A DNA stretch of 64,000 bases from an uncultured Gammaproteobacteria bacterium. GTDB taxonomy: Bacteria > Patescibacteriota > Microgenomatia > Levybacterales > UBA12049. The DNA lies in the NCBI GenBank assembly GCA_964579845.1, contig CAZOHC010000001.1:27196-91195 (forward strand). The letters run 5' to 3'. Positions 1,659-26,100 of the stretch are shown here, piece by piece. Under the pieces are notes generated by a model, which saw only the letters and a program-made list of their open reading frames with translations, was not told the origin of the DNA and made no database searches. Both the position numbers and the translations under genes were made by a program. Each line of letters opens with the position of its first letter. Within the stretch, counting starts at the first letter, position 1.

Positions 1659-3464
1659 TTAGGCTTCGTTCTCCATCTCAACGTGCACGACGTGGTGCTC
1701 TTCCAAACGGAAGAGTCCTTCGTCAAGTCGCTTCTGATCAAGGAAATGGGAGATAAAGCCGACTGAGCGTGAGAGAACGAATAACGCATTAAAGAACTCA
1801 ACCTCTGTCAGGTGCCGCAACTCATCATCAGAGTAGCCCTCTTTTTCTGAGAGGATATCAAGTAAAACAGCAGCGATGGTACCGTCAACGTTAAGGATTA
1901 AGTTGCCTTTTTTAGCAACGGTAACCTGTTCAACTGCAAGCGCAAATGATGTAAAGCGTTTGCTTTCCAGTCCGTCACCGTATGACAGTAGAGCTTTTAC
2001 GCGAGGATCAGGCATATCAACGCGATATTTCCTATGACCGATTCCGAGAATGTATTTTTTCTTGGCTGCAAACTCTTCAACAAAGTGATCCGCATCTACC
2101 TTACCGGTTACGCCTGTTATCCAGTTTGCTGCAGCTTCATTGATCGCACCGCCGAACCGGGGACCGACGGTCAAAAGTCCTGCCGACAAAGATGAGACGA
2201 GATCTCTTCCTGCACGTGCGGTGACGATGGTATTTACCGCACCTGAGACATGCGGTCCGTGATCAACAAGCAACCTGAGAATAAAATCAATAAAGGACAC
2301 AAGCTCTTTCGATGAGGCTTTTCTACCTAAAAAGAGATTTGCGACAATCTCAGCAAATGAGTGATCATGTGAAAATGCGAGCAGGTCTTCATCAAGCACT
2401 TTCACCACACCGTTATCATCTGTTGAGATACTGCTTGTGATGAGTGCTTTTTGTCTGTTTTTTGCTTCCTCCATATGCGTAGTATAGTCGATATACTCAT
2501 CGTTGTGTACTGCATCTGATTGCTCGATCTTTTTTACAAAATCAGAAAACGAAGATTCTGCCTGAACGCCAACATCGCGTAAGGCCTTCCGTTTCGCTTC
2601 TGCTGTTTCCGTTCTGGTTTTGGCCATTGCTTTCGCATGACCGAATTGGGGAGCACTCGGAAACAGGGTTGAGACCGTACCGCCGATATAGCAGATAACA
2701 GGTTTTGTGACTTTTCCGTCGCTAATAAGGTCGACAAGCTTATACTCGTCCGTCCCTCCGAGTTCACCGTAATACACGATTACCTCAGTTGCGGGGTCCT
2801 GCTCAGCTGCGAGAAAGGCATCCTCCGGGGTAAATATCGGAAATCGGTCGCCGCCGAATGAGAGTGCGAACGAGATTCGTTTCCCCGATCTGACAACAAT
2901 ATTAATCAGTTCGTTTGTCATACCGCCTGAGGCAGAAAACACCGCAATGCTTCCTTTTGTGAATAATTGTGCTTCAGCAAGTTGCCTGATATCCACACCG
3001 CCGATGGCACCGAGTTTGAGAACCTGCGGAATCAGTAATCCGACGCTGGCAGGACCGATGATACGTACATCTCGTTTTCCGGCATCTTCGTACAGGGCAA
3101 GCGCATGCCGTTCCGGCACATTTTCCGCAAAGACAGCACCTGCCCGTATGGAAGGGAAAGTACTCAACACTGAGCGTGTAGACGTGAGAACACGTCTTGC
3201 AGAACTGAGCTGTAAGAAAAAAGATACTTCCTGCCTCAGGCGCTGAGGAACTGCTTCCCCTGACTGGTAGACCGGGAGCAATATTTCTTTATTTCCGAAA
3301 AAATAACGCTCGAACCGCCGACCTGATGCGATAATACCAACCAGGCTCGGTGACTGTTTTCCGGCCAGGTAATCAAAATCCAGGATTGACTGGAGAATGC
3401 CTGGGTGGCTGCCGACGGCGATAATCTTCGGCTCAATTGATCGAAATGTTTGGATATCTATCAT
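1659..3464 (-). CDS. aclA: ATP-citrate lyase subunit A (CoA-binding/SCS-alpha-like domain plus citrate-synthase-like domain)
   Basis: 601 aa; phosphohistidine loop SAPQFGHAKAMAKTRTETAEAK; block-wise collinear with the human ACLY C-terminal half (HRKYRVDMPDPRVKAL / NLILNVDGTIAAVLLDIL / FVLSRSVGFISHFLDQKRL). Confidence 0.8.
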   Translation of the reverse strand: MIDIQTFRSIEPKIIAVGSHPGILQSILDFDYLAGKQSPSLVGIIASGRRFERYFFGNKEILLPVYQSGEAVPQRLRQEVSFFLQLSSARRVLTSTRSVLSTFPSIRAGAVFAENVPERHALALYEDAGKRDVRIIGPASVGLLIPQVLKLGAIGGVDIRQLAEAQLFTKGSIAVFSASGGMTNELINIVVRSGKRISFALSFGGDRFPIFTPEDAFLAAEQDPATEVIVYYGELGGTDEYKLVDLISDGKVTKPVICYIGGTVSTLFPSAPQFGHAKAMAKTRTETAEAKRKALRDVGVQAESSFSDFVKKIEQSDAVHNDEYIDYTTHMEEAKNRQKALITSSISTDDNGVVKVLDEDLLAFSHDHSFAEIVANLFLGRKASSKELVSFIDFILRLLVDHGPHVSGAVNTIVTARAGRDLVSSLSAGLLTVGPRFGGAINEAAANWITGVTGKVDADHFVEEFAAKKKYILGIGHRKYRVDMPDPRVKALLSYGDGLESKRFTSFALAVEQVTVAKKGNLILNVDGTIAAVLLDILSEKEGYSDDELRHLTEVEFFNALFVLSRSVGFISHFLDQKRLDEGLFRLEEHHVVHVEMENEA

Positions 3465-20348: not shown

Positions 20349-21014
20349 TTATGCGTTTTTGACTAGGGAGAGAAAAGAATCTGCAGATAAACTCGCACCT
20401 CCGATAAGCGCACCGTCAATTGAGGATTGATTCGTAAAAGTCGCGATATTCTCAGGCTTGACACTTCCACCGTAGAGGACAACTTTTGCCTGCTTTTCCT
20501 GTTTTAAAAAGCGGGCAACTTCTTCCGCATTGTCCGGCGTATCAGGAGTTCCTGAACCGATTGCGAACACAGGCTCATAGGCAACGATCGCAACACCGTC
20601 CGGGATCATGGTTTCTTTCCCCTGAACACAGAAGATCACGTGCAATCCGGCATCATGTGCCCGAACGACCTTCTCTGCCAACATCTCATCTGTTTCATTG
20701 AAAAGTTTTCTTCTTTCAGAGTGACCGATAATCACATAGTCACACAGCTCACGTAATTGACCGGCTGTGACTTCACCCGTATAGGCTCCTTCTTCATAAG
20801 GAGAGCAATTCTGCGCACCTACACGGAGCGGGAGGGAGTTCCGGTCGATATAGTGCTTCATCTCTGACAGTGCAGAAAAAGGAGGACACACAACAGCTAT
20901 TTTCTCTTCTTCCTGTCCGGCAGGCCAGCTGCTGTTTACGGTTTCTTCAAGCCAGGCAAGAGACTGCTCAACAGTTTTATATGATTTCCAGTTTCCGATA
21001 ATATATTTCGCCAT
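20349..21014 (-). CDS. tpiA: triose-phosphate isomerase
   Basis: IIGNWKSYKT, IIGHSERRKLF, AYEPVFAIGSG; a short (221 aa) TIM. Confidence 0.85.
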   Translation of the reverse strand: MAKYIIGNWKSYKTVEQSLAWLEETVNSSWPAGQEEEKIAVVCPPFSALSEMKHYIDRNSLPLRVGAQNCSPYEEGAYTGEVTAGQLRELCDYVIIGHSERRKLFNETDEMLAEKVVRAHDAGLHVIFCVQGKETMIPDGVAIVAYEPVFAIGSGTPDTPDNAEEVARFLKQEKQAKVVLYGGSVKPENIATFTNQSSIDGALIGGASLSADSFLSLVKNA

Positions 21015-21116: not shown

Positions 21117-22961
21117 ATGGAAAATGCACTTCTCAAGCAGTTAAATAAGGATCAACAGGAAGCAGTACTTCACACCGACGGTCCTGCAATTATCCTTGCC
21201 GGCGCGGGAAGCGGTAAGACACGAGTACTGACCTATAAAGTTCTCTACCTCGTTTCAGAGAAGCAGATTAACCCTAATGCAATCCTCATGGTAACGTTTA
21301 CTAATAAAGCAGCACAGGAAATGCGCGAACGGATCACAACCTATTTCGCAGAACACAACATCAAAGCTTCAACCCAACCCTTTGTATCTACCTTTCACTC
21401 ACTCTGTGCACGCATACTCAGATTGGAAGGAAAACATATCGGACTTGGCCCTCAATTCGTAATCTATGATACATCTGACCAGATAGAAGCGATTAAGGAA
21501 GCAATGAGTCAGCTCCATATATCAGTGAAAGATTTTAAGCCTGCTTCTGTTCTGGCCACCATCTCAGGTGCGAAGAACGAACTGATCACGGATAAAGAGT
21601 ACCCTTCATTCGCACGAGGATATTTCCAAGAGACCGTCGCGAAAATATTTACCGTCTACCAAAAAATCCTGAAAGAAAATGATGCGCTGGACTTTGATGA
21701 TATCTTACTGAAAACAGTGAAGTTGTTTCAGAATAATGAGCAGGTACTTGAAAAATATCAGGAAATGTTCCGGTACATCATGATTGATGAGTACCAAGAT
21801 ACAAATAAAGTACAGTATGCGCTGACGAAATTACTCGCAAAAAAATATAATAATATCTGCGTTGTCGGTGATTTCTCACAAAGCATCTACTCCTGGCGCG
21901 GGGCTGATTTCCAAAACCTGGTTCGATTTAAACAGGATTTTGAGAATGTGCAGGAATTCTCCCTCTCTCAGAATTACCGCTCCACACAGAAAATTCTTGA
22001 TGCAGCTTCATCTGTCATCGCCAGAAATAAATCGCACCCTGTGCTCAAGCTCTGGACCGAGAATCCGTCGGGTGAAGAACTTCAGCTCTATGAAGCAAAA
22101 AATGAGCAAGATGAAGCGGAGTTTATCGTCCGGATGATCAGCCACCTCGGTATCCAGGACTTAAGTAAGGTCGCGATTCTTTACCGAACCAATGCACAGT
22201 CACGAGTCATCGAGGAAGTCTTTCTGCACTTTGCCATTCCGTATCTCTTAATCGGTGGCACCAGATTCTATGAGCGAAAAGAGATTAAAGATGTTATCTC
22301 ATACCTCAGACATCTGAACAACCCGAAAGACAGTATCTCACTTAAGCGGATTGAGAAATTGGGGAAGGGGAGGCTACAAAAATATTTTACCTTTCAAGAA
22401 AACAATGATCTGACGAATGTTGCAACGATTGATGTCCTCGACCGGGTTCTTCATGCGACTGACTACCTCTCGCTCTACGACGAAGACGATGAGGAAGATC
22501 GAGCCCGGCTTGAAAACATTAAAGAACTTCGATCTGTTGCACTGGCATACCCTGACCTGACTGAGTTTTTGGAAAATATCACGCTGGTCGAACAAGAGGC
22601 ACTGAACCAGGATACGAACAGACGGAAAAACGGGGTGACACTCATGACACTCCATGCTGCCAAAGGACTGGAATTCCCGGTTGTCTTCATGATCGGTATG
22701 GAAGAAGGTGTTTTCCCTCATGCCAGGTCACTCATGGATAGGTCAGAGCTTGAAGAGGAACGAAGACTCTGCTATGTCGGCATGACCCGTGCCAGGGAAA
22801 AATTATTCTTAACATATGCACGACGGAGACTTTTTTTCGGACAACGGGCGTCAAATACAACCTCACGGTTCTTGCTAGAGATCCCTGAACACGTCATTGC
22901 AAAAAGTCGAAATGCACTCAGTCTTGAAAAAACAGATGCATCATCAACCGATTTTTTTTAG
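21117..22961 (+). CDS. pcrA: ATP-dependent DNA helicase, UvrD/PcrA/Rep family
   Basis: 614 aa; Walker A AGAGSGKTRVL; motifs DEYQDTN, YRS, TLHAAKGLEFPVVF, VGMTRAR. Confidence 0.9.
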   Translation: MENALLKQLNKDQQEAVLHTDGPAIILAGAGSGKTRVLTYKVLYLVSEKQINPNAILMVTFTNKAAQEMRERITTYFAEHNIKASTQPFVSTFHSLCARILRLEGKHIGLGPQFVIYDTSDQIEAIKEAMSQLHISVKDFKPASVLATISGAKNELITDKEYPSFARGYFQETVAKIFTVYQKILKENDALDFDDILLKTVKLFQNNEQVLEKYQEMFRYIMIDEYQDTNKVQYALTKLLAKKYNNICVVGDFSQSIYSWRGADFQNLVRFKQDFENVQEFSLSQNYRSTQKILDAASSVIARNKSHPVLKLWTENPSGEELQLYEAKNEQDEAEFIVRMISHLGIQDLSKVAILYRTNAQSRVIEEVFLHFAIPYLLIGGTRFYERKEIKDVISYLRHLNNPKDSISLKRIEKLGKGRLQKYFTFQENNDLTNVATIDVLDRVLHATDYLSLYDEDDEEDRARLENIKELRSVALAYPDLTEFLENITLVEQEALNQDTNRRKNGVTLMTLHAAKGLEFPVVFMIGMEEGVFPHARSLMDRSELEEERRLCYVGMTRAREKLFLTYARRRLFFGQRASNTTSRFLLEIPEHVIAKSRNALSLEKTDASSTDFF

Positions 22962-23516: not shown

Positions 23517-24548
23517 ATGCGTTTTGAATCAATCCTCCCGAATCAAAAGTCAGCCTATAACAGTATCGTCTCCCATCCGCTCCAAGCATACGAATGGGGG
23601 GAGTTCCGGGAAAAAACAGGGGTTAAAGTTATCAGAAAGGGAGTTTTCGATGGCGAGAAACTTATCGACGGATTTCAGCTCACGATTCATCCTGTTCCGA
23701 AAACGAACTTCACCATCGGCTATCTACCGAAAGGAAATCGTCCGAGTAGGGAAGTCCTAGCAGAACTGCAAAAGATCGGAAAAAAAGAAAACTGTATCTT
23801 TATTCAATTGGAGCCAAACATACGAGAAAATTCGAAATTCGAAATTCGAAATTCGAAATTCCGGCTGCAGCCGGCCGCACATCCGCTTTTTACCAAATAT
23901 ACTTTTGTCCTCGATTTGACGAAGTCTGAGGAGGATTTACTCAAGCAGATGCATGCGAAAACCAGATATAACATACGGGTCGCGACACGACACGGGGTGA
24001 CTGTTCAGGAGGAGAAAACACCTGAGGCATTCGAAAGATACTGGCACCTGACTGAAGAGACGACTAAGCGACAAAAATTCTATGCACACACGAAAAATTA
24101 CCATGAACTGCAATGGGAGGTTTTACAACAAGCCAAAGACCGCGAGCCGAAAGCGAAAAACGCTTTGACGTCCCACTTACTGACAGCACGATATGAAGGG
24201 AAAATTCTTACCACCATGCTGTTCTTTGTATTTAAAGACACGCTCTACTATCCGTACGGTGCTTCGAGTAATGAAGCCCGAAACACGATGCATTCAGTTC
24301 TCACGATGTGGGAGGGAATTCGTTTCGGAAAAAAGCTTGGACTGAAATCATTTGATATGTGGGGAAGTCTCGCTGAGAATCCTGACCCGAAAGACCCATG
24401 GTACGGTTTTCATCGCTTTAAACAGGGTTTCGGTCCAGAACTTGTGGAGTTCGTCGGGAGCTATGATCTGGTGATACATCCACTCGCGTATCAGGGATAC
24501 AAAATCGCGGATAAACTTCGATGGTTGTACCTGAGGATAAAAAAATAA
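23517..24548 (+). CDS. FemAB-family aminoacyltransferase (peptidoglycan interpeptide-bridge formation)
   Basis: 343 aa; FemAB/GNAT-fold blocks (MHAKTRYNIRVATRHGV, LLTARYEGKILTTMLFFVFKDTLYYPYGAS). Confidence 0.7.
   Translation: MRFESILPNQKSAYNSIVSHPLQAYEWGEFREKTGVKVIRKGVFDGEKLIDGFQLTIHPVPKTNFTIGYLPKGNRPSREVLAELQKIGKKENCIFIQLEPNIRENSKFEIRNSKFRLQPAAHPLFTKYTFVLDLTKSEEDLLKQMHAKTRYNIRVATRHGVTVQEEKTPEAFERYWHLTEETTKRQKFYAHTKNYHELQWEVLQQAKDREPKAKNALTSHLLTARYEGKILTTMLFFVFKDTLYYPYGASSNEARNTMHSVLTMWEGIRFGKKLGLKSFDMWGSLAENPDPKDPWYGFHRFKQGFGPELVEFVGSYDLVIHPLAYQGYKIADKLRWLYLRIKK
23826..23861 (+). repeat. heptanucleotide tandem repeat (TTCGAAA/GAAATTC) x about 4.7 inside the FemAB-like CDS
   Basis: gaaaattcgaaattcgaaattcgaaattcgaaattcc, encoding ENSKFEIRNSKF; a 7-nt unit within a coding frame. 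Confidence 0.8.
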
Positions 24549-24620
24549 ATTTCTAATGACGAATTACTACTTTCTAATCAATGCTCACTTTCCAATGTCT
24601 CATTTCATTCATGGGATTTT

Positions 24621-24647
24621 ATTAGAAATTAGATATTAGAAATTAGA
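24621..24647 (+). repeat. tandem 13-nt direct repeat ATTAGAAATTAGA x2, with two upstream inverted TTTCTAAT copies, immediately 5' of the 24655 gene
   Basis: attagaaattaga t attagaaattaga at 24621-24647; TTTCTAAT at 24550-24557 and 24571-24578; ATG at 24655. Confidence 0.6.
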
Positions 24648-24654
24648 CATTCAT

Positions 24655-26100
24655 ATGAACCGTTATTTGCCTTTTTTACTGCTTGCTGCGTGCTTTTTAC
24701 TCCTCAAACTCTCGAATCTCGGCATTCGTCTTTCTGATAAGAATATCTATTTCTACACCGGCCTGCAGCTTCTTAAAGGAAATATGCTGTATAAAGATGT
24801 TTTTTTTACTAACTTTCCGCTATTTCCGTATGTCTCAAGTCTGTATGTTCTGCTGAGTTTTAAGCAGTTGCCACTTTTCTTCTTTACAGCAGTTATCGAG
24901 GCATCACTCGTCGGATTTCTGCTCTATTCCATCATTCTCAAGCAGACGAAACATATGCTCACCGCGACACTTTCTGCAATGGTGTACCTATTCTCCTTTA
25001 TGATTCTCTCGACCACGGACCACCAGACAGGCGTCTTTCTCGCCTCAGTTTTTGCGGTCGCGAGCTATTATTTTTATACTGAAAAGAAGTATCTGCTCAC
25101 TGGCATATGTGTCGCACTGGCATTACTAACCAAGGCATATTTTCTGCCGGTCTTTCTGACATACATATTTGTTCTTTTGTTCAAACAGAATAGGGGAGAG
25201 GATTCAGAAAAAAATGTCCGTAATCCTGAACGTAGTGATGGATCACTAGGAAACAGATCCCTCGTCTCTACTCAGAATGACAGACTTGGGTTTTTTATCG
25301 GGTTTACGGTAACATTGCTCCTCGTACTTCTTCCGTCGCTCTTCTTTGCACCATCTGATTTCTTCCATAATGTCTTTGAGTATTCATTAACTCGCTCACA
25401 GGGCATAGGGAAAGGAAATCTTCTCTGGTTTTTTATTACCCATGATCTGCTGCTTTTTACCGCGTTCATCTACTCACTGATCTCGATTCGCAAACACCTG
25501 TTCTTAGGAATTTTCTCGATTTTTTCGTTGCTTTTTATCTTCCTATATCAGGATATCTACTATCTCTATCTGAACTTCATGCTCCCTTTCCTCGTACTCT
25601 CTTTTGCTAACCTCTACCGGGATCTGGAACAAAAAATCAGTATGCAGAAAATGATAATCCCGACTATTATCATAATATTTCTTCTGATCAATTTAGGGAT
25701 CTATATTTCAGGATATAGAAATCTCCAGAAGATTGAGAACATAGAACACCTCACCACGGCGATAGAAGAGAACAACCCACCCGCACTCTACGGAATAAAT
25801 TCACTGACGCCAGCCCTCGCATATTTGACAGCCACACCGCTGCTTAACAGTACAGTCGATACGAATCCGAACATCTATCGGAAAGGATTTCTAAGCGCAG
25901 AGACTATGACGAGGGATGCGATAGATCAAGGCGCACTCTTTGTAACACAGGGACTCTTCTATCCCGAGTTCGGGGTTGAACAACCGGTGACAGATGAGAT
26001 CTTTGACATGGAGCAAATGGGAAACTGCCGACTCATGCAAAGTATCCCGATTCAAAACGAAGGCCCACAGAATAGGATCAACCTGGTCCAGTGTAAATAG
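24655..26100 (+). CDS. polytopic membrane protein, probable third GT-C (ArnT/PMT-like) glycosyltransferase
   Basis: 481 aa; first loop SDKNIYFYTGLQLLKGNMLYKDVFFTNFPLFPY resembles the ArnT/PMT loop-1 pattern (DE.RY...G.W..P.....PYF.KPP). Confidence 0.5.
   Translation: MNRYLPFLLLAACFLLLKLSNLGIRLSDKNIYFYTGLQLLKGNMLYKDVFFTNFPLFPYVSSLYVLLSFKQLPLFFFTAVIEASLVGFLLYSIILKQTKHMLTATLSAMVYLFSFMILSTTDHQTGVFLASVFAVASYYFYTEKKYLLTGICVALALLTKAYFLPVFLTYIFVLLFKQNRGEDSEKNVRNPERSDGSLGNRSLVSTQNDRLGFFIGFTVTLLLVLLPSLFFAPSDFFHNVFEYSLTRSQGIGKGNLLWFFITHDLLLFTAFIYSLISIRKHLFLGIFSIFSLLFIFLYQDIYYLYLNFMLPFLVLSFANLYRDLEQKISMQKMIIPTIIIIFLLINLGIYISGYRNLQKIENIEHLTTAIEENNPPALYGINSLTPALAYLTATPLLNSTVDTNPNIYRKGFLSAETMTRDAIDQGALFVTQGLFYPEFGVEQPVTDEIFDMEQMGNCRLMQSIPIQNEGPQNRINLVQCK

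Follow-up and report, generated by a model that had tools for sequence, protein, structure and literature searches.

Phase variation and the hypermutability of simple sequence repeats (SSRs) have been worked out almost wholly in cultured pathogens. The closest described system to the one considered here is neuO of Escherichia coli K1, an O-acetyltransferase gene of the CUS-3 prophage with a coding (AAGACTC)n repeat, for which 3-53 copies are recorded; among 64 complete genomes, 65.6% have it OFF, and variation can be measured inside one culture (PMC13001214). In Haemophilus influenzae, heptanucleotide SSRs of 8-38 copies modulate or frameshift genes (the hmw1A and hmw2A promoters, a homolog of HI1369 and the hmw1a open reading frame (ORF) of PittAA; PMC2651432). 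Heptamers are also over-represented among SSRs with units of 5-11 nt in many bacteria, for which slippage linked to the polymerase footprint has been hypothesised, and the same work, as relayed by two later papers, places most long SSRs in genomes that are large, GC-rich or host-adapted, and finds multiples of three favoured in coding DNA (Mrazek, 2007, via PMC4679880 and PMC4692102). A further group is formed by dispersed heptamers, such as TAACTGA in Beggiatoaceae and cyanobacteria, GGGNATC in Xanthomonas and Nostoc, and the tandemly repeated heptanucleotides of Calothrix, which occur as 2-6 units or with a preference for 4, often beside start codons (PMC4679880, PMC4692102). In this study, we have explored a heptanucleotide tract inside a femX-like gene, together with its counterparts in relatives; it lies in a 64,000-nt stretch (the window) of contig CAZOHC010000001.1 (assembly GCA_964579845.1), from an ultra-small bacterium of the Candidate Phyla Radiation (CPR) assigned to the Levybacterales.

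Based on our results, we favour, at a probability of roughly 0.58, the view that this tract is a long SSR generated by slippage and tolerated in a permissive loop of FemX, which leaves the gene mutable and is not a balanced contingency switch. Tandem Repeats Finder (TRF) reported positions 23828-23861 as period 7 with 4.9 copies, 100% matches, zero indels and a score of 68, and an independent repeat scan returned a perfect (AAATTCG)x4.86 over the same positions of the forward strand. The first interpretation of this DNA (hereafter the sequence-only reading) had described a coding GAAATTC microsatellite of about 4.7 copies (23826-23861, peptide ENSKFEIRNSKF) in a FemAB-like gene; this is the same tract in another phase, and the description was accurate. 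No other perfect repeat with a period of at least 5 and more than 3 copies was found by the repeat scan across the window, in 200 Markov-1 simulations of which the longest perfect period-7 run obtained by chance was 2.57 copies. When lags of 2 to 12 were scanned over the window, at least 18 of 21 matches were reached at lag 7 only, and at two sites: 23825-23864, which is the femX tract, and 24620-24651, in the spacer that follows the gene. With a unit of 5-11 nt, at least three perfect copies, a length above chance and period 7 dominant, the tract belongs to the class of long heptanucleotide SSRs.

The tract is in frame within the ORF at 23517-24548, whose peptide includes IRENSKFEIRNSKFRLQPA. 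The product matches Pfam PF02388 (FemAB) with E = 3e-35 (122.3 bits against a cut-off of 24), and its best solved relatives are Staphylococcus aureus FemX (6SNR, E = 2.8e-18) and FemA. Its AlphaFold2 model, made with a 40-sequence alignment (predicted local distance difference test, pLDDT, 87.8; predicted template modelling score, pTM, 0.85), retrieved 6SNR in Foldseek with E = 1.1e-22 and a query-based TM-score (TMq) of 0.81, and Weissella FemX with a TMq of about 0.75. With PF02388 above gathering and the tandem GCN5-related N-acetyltransferase (GNAT) Fem fold, membership of the FemAB family can be taken as established from sequence and model. This does not extend to the substrate or amino-acid specificity: the FemX equivalog NF047883 (UDP-MurNAc-pentapeptide-lysine N6-alanyltransferase) scored 39 bits against an NCBIfam cut-off of 500. 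Homologs come from metagenome-assembled genomes (MAGs) of Candidatus Levybacteria or Patescibacteria, where they are annotated as lipid II:glycine glycyltransferase or FemX; the best match reaches 75% identity, or 78% when the loop is masked, so that the databases contain no close relative of the window's own species. The exact protein was found once in the database and is not on record in the contig index. The window protein aligns with these homologs over its full length, and its allele is therefore ON.

Within this protein, the tract encodes residues 104-115 of a loop (loop 1) that is hypervariable and indel-rich in the alignment of 40 homologs, and in which the model has its second-lowest confidence (mean pLDDT per block, 62 and 76). 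Confidence is lowest at residues 205-217, with pLDDT below 50 at 210-212, in a second loop (loop 2) from which the coiled-coil arm projects in the Fem proteins of S. aureus; the PDB alignment skips 6SNR chain residues 228-296 there. Loop 2 carries tracts in 16 mapped relatives, including L106, L075, L143, L017, L019 and L160 (L and P numbers are our handles for loci and proteins), and a few tracts lie at a third femX site, a hairpin turn near residue 227. In L075, a single femX holds three separate perfect tracts that differ in their units (loop 1, 2800-2833, 34 nt; 3092-3125, 34 nt; 3184-3210, 27 nt), yet its reading frame is kept.

Relatives carry tracts at the orthologous loop as well, which also bears on the possibility that the window copy number was collapsed or expanded in assembly. 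We fetched about 160 orthologous loci as DNA and mapped the loop by alignment, giving 163 loci with the window; the best 80 matches per scan were kept, so that this sample favours intact genes. Perfect period-7 repeats in loop 1 reached at least 2.5 copies in 38 loci, at least 3 in 23 and at least 4 in 16, with a maximum of 5.43 copies (38 nt); such tracts are thus a long-standing trait of the loop. The sequence-only reading had proposed a comparison with orthologs, and this comparison places tracts at the same loop with units that differ from one relative to another. Among the 163 loci, no comparable repeat of another period was found in loop 1, the harmonic period 14 aside. The units of a tandem repeat longer than k can be miscounted by de Bruijn assemblers, and this is what could be said for an artefact at the window tract. 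However, reads and the larger of the usual k values exceed the 34 nt of the tract, the reading frame is intact, and 16 independent assemblies carry 4.3-5.4 in-frame copies at the same place; we consider a miscount in the window extremely improbable.

The units themselves vary, with 29 classes in 41 loop tracts (for example AAATTTC, AATGGTC, AAATTGG, AACTCTC, AAATGGC, AAGATAC, AAAATGG and AATTTCG). In the nearest relative, L001/L002, which shares 78% identity once the loop is left aside, the corresponding position holds (AAATTTC)x5.43, and the next closest, L168, has an imperfect (CnAAATA)x4.3. A path of single substitutions leads from AAATTTC (L001) through GAATTTC (L122) to GAAATTC in the window, which indicates that units would change by substitution followed by homogenisation of the array. 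The modal length of loop 1 is 19 aa over the 163 loci, equal with and without a tract. In loop 2, the median is 19 aa with a tract against 12 aa (mode 11) without, and the gap of 7 aa corresponds to three units.

At the protein level, this gives a 7-aa periodicity in the loop peptides of homologs (for example ISNFKFQISNFK, NWKLEIGNWKL, TLNSQLSTLNL and MENGKWQMEN), and no other amino-acid period in these loops behaves in the same way. One could propose that selection acts on a 7-residue repeat (KFEIR-NS-KFRLQ, WKLEI-GN-WKL), which would serve as a small beta-hairpin or an interaction module, and that the DNA period is secondary. In the translated tracts, hydrophobic and polar residues do alternate around turns of N-G, N-S or G-N, and the tracts end in a hydrophobic-x-hydrophobic-x-P-A motif that is conserved also in repeat-free loops. 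Nevertheless, the DNA units are identical even at synonymous positions, where protein-level selection would not call for it, loop peptides diverge strongly between close relatives, the model is mostly coil and of low confidence at loop 1, and the same tracts occur in non-coding spacers. Selection on the peptide is, in our opinion, a very unlikely origin of the tract.

The restriction to period 7 extends beyond loop 1. The non-redundant locus DNA scanned amounts to 761 kb, at about 5 kb per genome. Taking as perfect tracts those with at least 11 matches beyond the first unit, we counted in it 90 tracts of period 7 against 0-4 for each other non-harmonic period between 2 and 21, and the longest tract anywhere was again 38 nt (5.43 copies). 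Loop 1 accounts for 37 of them and loop 2 for most of the other in-gene ones. In total, 64 lie in femX (about 158 kb) against 26 in about 600 kb of flanks, an enrichment of about 10-fold; outside femX, 16 are in long ORFs and 10 are intergenic. The sequence-only reading had held coding heptamers to be rare, which is untrue of this lineage, where they recur in triose-phosphate isomerase, in a UvrD-like helicase and in spacers. In triose-phosphate isomerase, in-frame tracts occupy one fixed loop, between WL.. and I..CPPF, in 6 loci, representing at least six species; in the UvrD-like helicase, they lie between DEAEFI and AILYRTNAQ in 3 loci from three species, and in a different loop in L122. 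Triose-phosphate isomerase is a glycolytic housekeeping gene and an unlikely target of adaptive phase variation. The preference for period 7 is the one described for the long SSRs surveyed by Mrazek; the difference is that here, in an ultra-small CPR bacterium, 7-nt tracts are in frame at orthologous loops of conserved housekeeping genes.

As for spacers, the degenerate window tract at 24620-24651 ends 3 nt before the ATG (24655) of a DUF2079/PMT_2-like gene, and in this it resembles the dispersed heptamer sets found near start codons. Other heptamer tracts occupy the same spacer in relatives, 3 nt (L016), 24 nt (L024) and 77 nt (L025) past the femX stop. Tracts are carried by, or adjoin, both femX and its glycosyltransferase-like neighbour, which are envelope-related, and also the housekeeping triose-phosphate isomerase and UvrD-like helicase, within the roughly 5 kb sampled per genome.

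In six relatives (L007, L144, L013, L148, L158 and L152), loop 1 contains in-frame inserts of 90-115 nt that fold as long hairpins, at -44 kcal/mol and z = -7.4 in L007, with peptides such as RHSGE..DSGQARMT, VIPAKAGIHGS..GVGDD and DTKIL..ILISQYPNI. These inserts resemble the in-frame Rickettsia palindromic elements or transposable elements of the miniature inverted-repeat type (MITEs), and because they occupy loop 1 in other relatives, the loop can be regarded as a general landing pad for repeat DNA. Rickettsia palindromic elements offer a parallel in that conserved enzymes likewise accommodate repeat DNA, in frame and in surface loops, and are not destroyed by it (PMC10969869), but they are inverted repeats of about 100-150 bp, in contrast to a 34-nt direct tandem repeat that lacks an inverted-repeat architecture and changes length by whole units.

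Such observations raise the question of whether the heptamer tracts are themselves a dispersed element, possibly mobile or templated, that reaches permissive sites by insertion or copying and might have a role as DNA or RNA, such as the binding of a cold-shock-type protein. A few units are shared by distant branches and by different genes while nearest relatives of 85-89% identity have unrelated loops, tract size is uniform throughout at about 30-38 nt, loop 1 also hosts the hairpin inserts, and both genome-dispersed sets of 2-6 heptamers (PMC4679880, PMC4692102) and in-frame palindromic elements (PMC10969869) are known. However, the many unit classes have no common flanking motif, unlike the described single-unit families, and a family of that sort, with few fixed units and a mainly intergenic location, is not matched by the distribution of tracts over femX and other ORFs given above. 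Moreover, the modal length of loop 1 is the same with or without a tract, length changes occur in whole units as slippage predicts, neither an associated enzyme nor a target-site duplication was seen, and the search of the tract site for an RNA family returned no Rfam match, only noise (proV, 18.8 bits against a gathering cut-off of 88.5). We therefore regard a dispersed element as unlikely. A broader proposal would be a heptanucleotide-specific process in Levybacteria, and perhaps other CPR bacteria, that goes beyond ordinary slippage and repeatedly writes in-frame tracts of about 35 nt into the same loops (FemX loops 1-3, triose-phosphate isomerase and the UvrD-like helicase), with fast loop turnover and stochastic gene-off states; it would amount to a lineage-wide contingency network or to a new, coding-compatible selfish tandem repeat. 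We put this forward as a speculation of low probability.

The tract is a perfect in-frame SSR whose unit is not a multiple of three, as contingency loci have it. In simulation, a change of one or two units at the window tract truncates the product to 131-139 aa and a change of three keeps the frame, which bears out the earlier claim that gain or loss of one unit frameshifts the gene. Natural examples were found as well. With a profile of the N-terminal domain, we recovered 120 short proteins, several of which lose the frame exactly within the heptad peptide, and DNA was obtained for four heptamer OFF alleles (L164-L167; Table 1). The clearest case is that of L164, in which the addition of two units gives the loop of an ON sibling, P0197, known as protein and not as DNA; P0197 and the OFF product P0196 are identical at 108 of 108 positions up to the tract, so that they form an ON/OFF pair with a two-unit difference, in another species than that of the window. 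The frames downstream of the tract are intact in all four OFF alleles, whose contigs are short (623-1123 nt). Whole-unit length changes therefore happen naturally at the orthologous tract, and they inactivate or split femX. Three of the four alleles keep just 2.0-2.7 copies, and a cluster look-up found no further members of the OFF proteins, all of which are singletons. The 162 fetched loci are all in frame across loop 1, a result that we do not count as a test, given the bias of that sample to intact genes.

In two of these alleles, the C-terminal ORF begins at a Met encoded by the tract itself (L164, 486-680, MVNGQLRPSFHPLF..; L166, 407-1096, MENLYPSFHPLF..), the units AATGGTC and AAAATGG both containing ATG, and it is conceivable that the two adjacent ORFs would form a functional split enzyme. 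Other candidates were set aside. In L163, a 4968-nt contig with synteny kept, femX is split into ORFs of 130 and 223 aa at about 2800-2870, and its product P0164 was rejected as a heptamer OFF allele, the frame being lost at A8/A9 homopolymers inside loop 1; this is a non-heptamer route to the same OFF state. P0245 (234 aa), which starts within a tract peptide, was rejected because its 726-nt contig ends there. Several independent truncated homologs (P0166, P0173, P0174, P0186 and P0190) lose the frame at the conserved HPLFTKY, coded by T/A runs, which suggests a second slippery spot or recurring homopolymer sequencing errors. We also considered whether the OFF alleles had been produced by de Bruijn collapse; by reasoning alone, k of at least 21 cannot give tracts of 14-19 nt, so that L164, L166 and L167 are unlikely to be artefacts, and L165 (26 nt) could be one.

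How often the OFF state occurs was judged from a length-unbiased sample, the 120 best matches to a profile of the C-terminal 223 residues. Of these, 118 are full length, and the two short ones are on short contigs, one starting at the contig edge inside a tract. Set against thousands of full-length homologs, the four heptamer OFF alleles among 120 short N-terminal fragments lead to a rough estimate that OFF alleles make up at most about 1% of tract-bearing alleles. Two features expected of contingency loci are thus lacking, since both phases are not common among assemblies and the copy number has no wide range (4.3-5.4 in intact alleles).

The comparison with neuO is instructive in this respect. 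The two share a coding 7-nt unit, full length that depends on frame, slippage by whole units and a 7-aa peptide period. However, the repeat of neuO is at the 5' end, unlike the internal femX tract of about 5 copies (at most 5.43 in relatives, with ON dominance), and neuO is an accessory prophage gene for surface modification, as opposed to a chromosomal gene in conserved synteny. A NeuO-type N-terminal array, with tens of heptads that tune activity, was considered and does not match an internal tract of about 1.6 heptads. The heptamers of H. influenzae differ too, being strain-variable and linked to adhesins or receptors, in contrast to the low and uniform copy number of the femX tract.

The tract could instead be a true contingency locus, in which mutability itself would be selected and slipped-strand mispairing would reversibly switch FemX and the cross-bridge, giving wall heterogeneity, for example against phages, lytic enzymes or the host defences met by an episymbiont. 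Whole-unit changes do frameshift femX; the ON/OFF pair is joined by three more unit-change OFF alleles with intact downstream frames; perfect tracts with unit turnover are retained at loop 1 across proteins that are merely 54-78% identical; femX is enriched about 10-fold and the spacer beside the neighbouring envelope gene also has a tract; and a coding heptamer switch has a precedent in neuO (PMC13001214). Against this, OFF alleles are at most about 1% of tract-bearing alleles compared with 65.6% for neuO, copies do not exceed 5.43 compared with 3-53 (PMC13001214), and the low copy number of three of the four OFF alleles makes them poorly reversible. Identical tracts are found in loops of triose-phosphate isomerase and the UvrD-like helicase, where switching is implausible, up to three tracts occur within one femX (L075), and no FemAB paralog able to buffer an OFF state was found in the 64-kb window. 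We conclude that a selected switch is possible but doubtful. Of the phase-variation switch proposed in the sequence-only reading, what stands is a frameshift-prone tract with OFF alleles in relatives; ON dominance, the narrow copy number and the permissive loop speak against the remainder, and the further inference that such a repeat marks a contingency locus is not supported, with 118 of 120 homologs full length and tracts also in housekeeping loops. That reading had itself named a uniform copy number in a poorly conserved loop as the outcome that would count against a switch, and this is largely what we see, in a poorly conserved loop of low pLDDT with 4.3-5.4 copies in intact relatives.

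Returning to a slippage-generated SSR tolerated in FemX, we infer the following sequence of events. Replication slippage with a preferred 7-nt step would create the tract and keep its units homogeneous, and tracts of about 30-38 nt would settle where sequence is weakly constrained, that is, in two or three FemX loops, in fixed loops of two other proteins (triose-phosphate isomerase and the UvrD-like helicase) and between genes. Within genes, the survivors would be those with stop-free units in the coding orientation and with copy numbers that keep the frame. In-frame states would be spaced by three units (21 nt, 7 aa), which would explain the cluster at about 4.3-5.4 copies and the additional 7 aa in tract-bearing loop 2. 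The tract would leave femX frameshift-prone, the ON state would be under purifying selection, as the rarity of OFF alleles suggests, and switching would be a mutational side-effect or, at most, a source of low-frequency heterogeneity.

Several points weigh against this explanation. A neutral model needs unusually permissive loops to accommodate the roughly 10-fold excess of tracts in femX over its flanks. Perfect tracts that persist or re-arise where single-unit slips cause frameshifts would also be expected from selection for mutability, and the intact downstream frames of all OFF alleles fit recent, possibly reversible switching. Assemblies show the majority allele only, and minority OFF subpopulations are invisible in them. 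Simple slippage does not explain why period 7 is exclusive or why copy numbers stop sharply at 5.4. Finally, the recurrence of a few units in distant branches, alongside unrelated loops in relatives of 85-89% identity, hints at something beyond in-situ decay.

Some local features of the window tract seem to be peculiar to it. The earlier report of TTCGAA at the unit junctions was confirmed, with four sites in the tract, but these palindromes were rejected as a meaningful feature, being specific to the unit of the window and absent from most units of relatives. TTCGAA is depleted over the whole window (15 sites against 35.9 +/- 5.6 expected, 4 of the 15 being in the tract), and its low count could reflect restriction-site avoidance. 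The GC palindrome CCGGCTGCAGCCGG adjoining the AT-rich tract is absent from the loops of relatives and is probably incidental. Tract and palindrome together form a stable single-stranded DNA fold (-14 kcal/mol, z = -3.8), which may favour slippage in the window; such folding is not general to the units, as z = -0.7 for the tract of L001.

The surroundings of femX are conserved, with triose-phosphate isomerase, the UvrD-like helicase, a small membrane protein, femX and a large membrane protein in synteny with relatives. The gene after femX, syntenic in L001 and L168, is a putative surface glycosyltransferase by its sequence, and no promoter or terminator was found in the femX-downstream spacer of the window. 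Some relatives have a further FemAB-family paralog, divergent at 23-26% identity, which is found at femX or within about 1.8 kb downstream of it. The coordinates of all features are collected in Table 1.

Table 1. Features of the window and of orthologous loci in relatives (nt positions of the window unless a locus is named).
Feature	Position	Strand	Description
Perfect heptanucleotide tract (AAATTCG)x4.86	23828..23861	+	Codes NSKFEIRNSKF inside loop 1; TRF, repeat scan, simulations, lag scan
14-nt perfect GC palindrome CCGGCTGCAGCCGG	23861..23874	.	Adjoins 3' end of the tract; codes part of RLQPAA
Host gene, femX-like	23517..24548	+	343 aa, intact (ON); predicted FemAB-family aminoacyl-tRNA-dependent peptidoglycan cross-bridge transferase
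Loop 1	23820..23876	+	Residues 102-120, between invariant E99-P100-N101 (IFIQLEPN) and A121-H122-P123 (AHPLFT)
Loop 2	24123..24167	+	Residues ~203-217; second heptamer hot-spot of the family; no tract here in the window
Degenerate tract (ATTAGAN)x4.4 = 14-mer x2.3	24620..24651	+	106-nt femX-downstream spacer; TRF, lag scan
Downstream gene	24655..26100	+	481-aa multi-pass membrane protein, weakly DUF2079/PMT_2-like; Pfam matches under gathering cut-offs, weak NCBIfam match
Triose-phosphate isomerase tracts	L008 341-367; L026 405-432; L050 376-408; L075 315-345; L150 524-553; L077 585-602		Orthologs of window 20349-21014, minus strand
UvrD-like helicase tracts	L036 1548-1567; L150 1643-1672; L143 31-48; L122 873-896 (other loop)		Orthologs of window 21117-22961
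FemAB paralog near femX	L107 3568-4329; L139 5148-5873; L142 3163-3789; L159 3529-4320		
OFF allele L164			(AATGGTC)x2.43; frame restored by +2 or -1 units
OFF allele L165			(AATTGGA)x3.71; frame restored by +1 or -2 units
OFF allele L166			(AAAATGG)x2.71; frame restored by +2 or -1 units
OFF allele L167			Two units vs four in L168; frame restored by -1 (or +2 variant units, as in L168)

In conclusion, our results lend modest support to femX as a phase-variation switch, and of greater interest is the lineage-wide pattern. That heptamer SSRs occur in coding DNA and that heptamers are over-represented was already known, and the window tract is mechanistically ordinary, a frameshift-prone SSR; the unusual part is the comparative picture. 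Our literature search found no report of heptanucleotide repeats or SSRs in CPR bacteria or Patescibacteria, nor of heptamer tracts at orthologous loops of conserved enzymes across a lineage. There is also a practical warning, in that gene callers split such genes and miscounted short tandem repeats in MAGs mimic pseudogenes. If the pattern generalises, it would bear on protein-loop diversity in ultra-small genomes, on the dominance of heptamers among long SSRs, a question open since 2007, and on stochastic cell-wall diversification by uncultured episymbionts.

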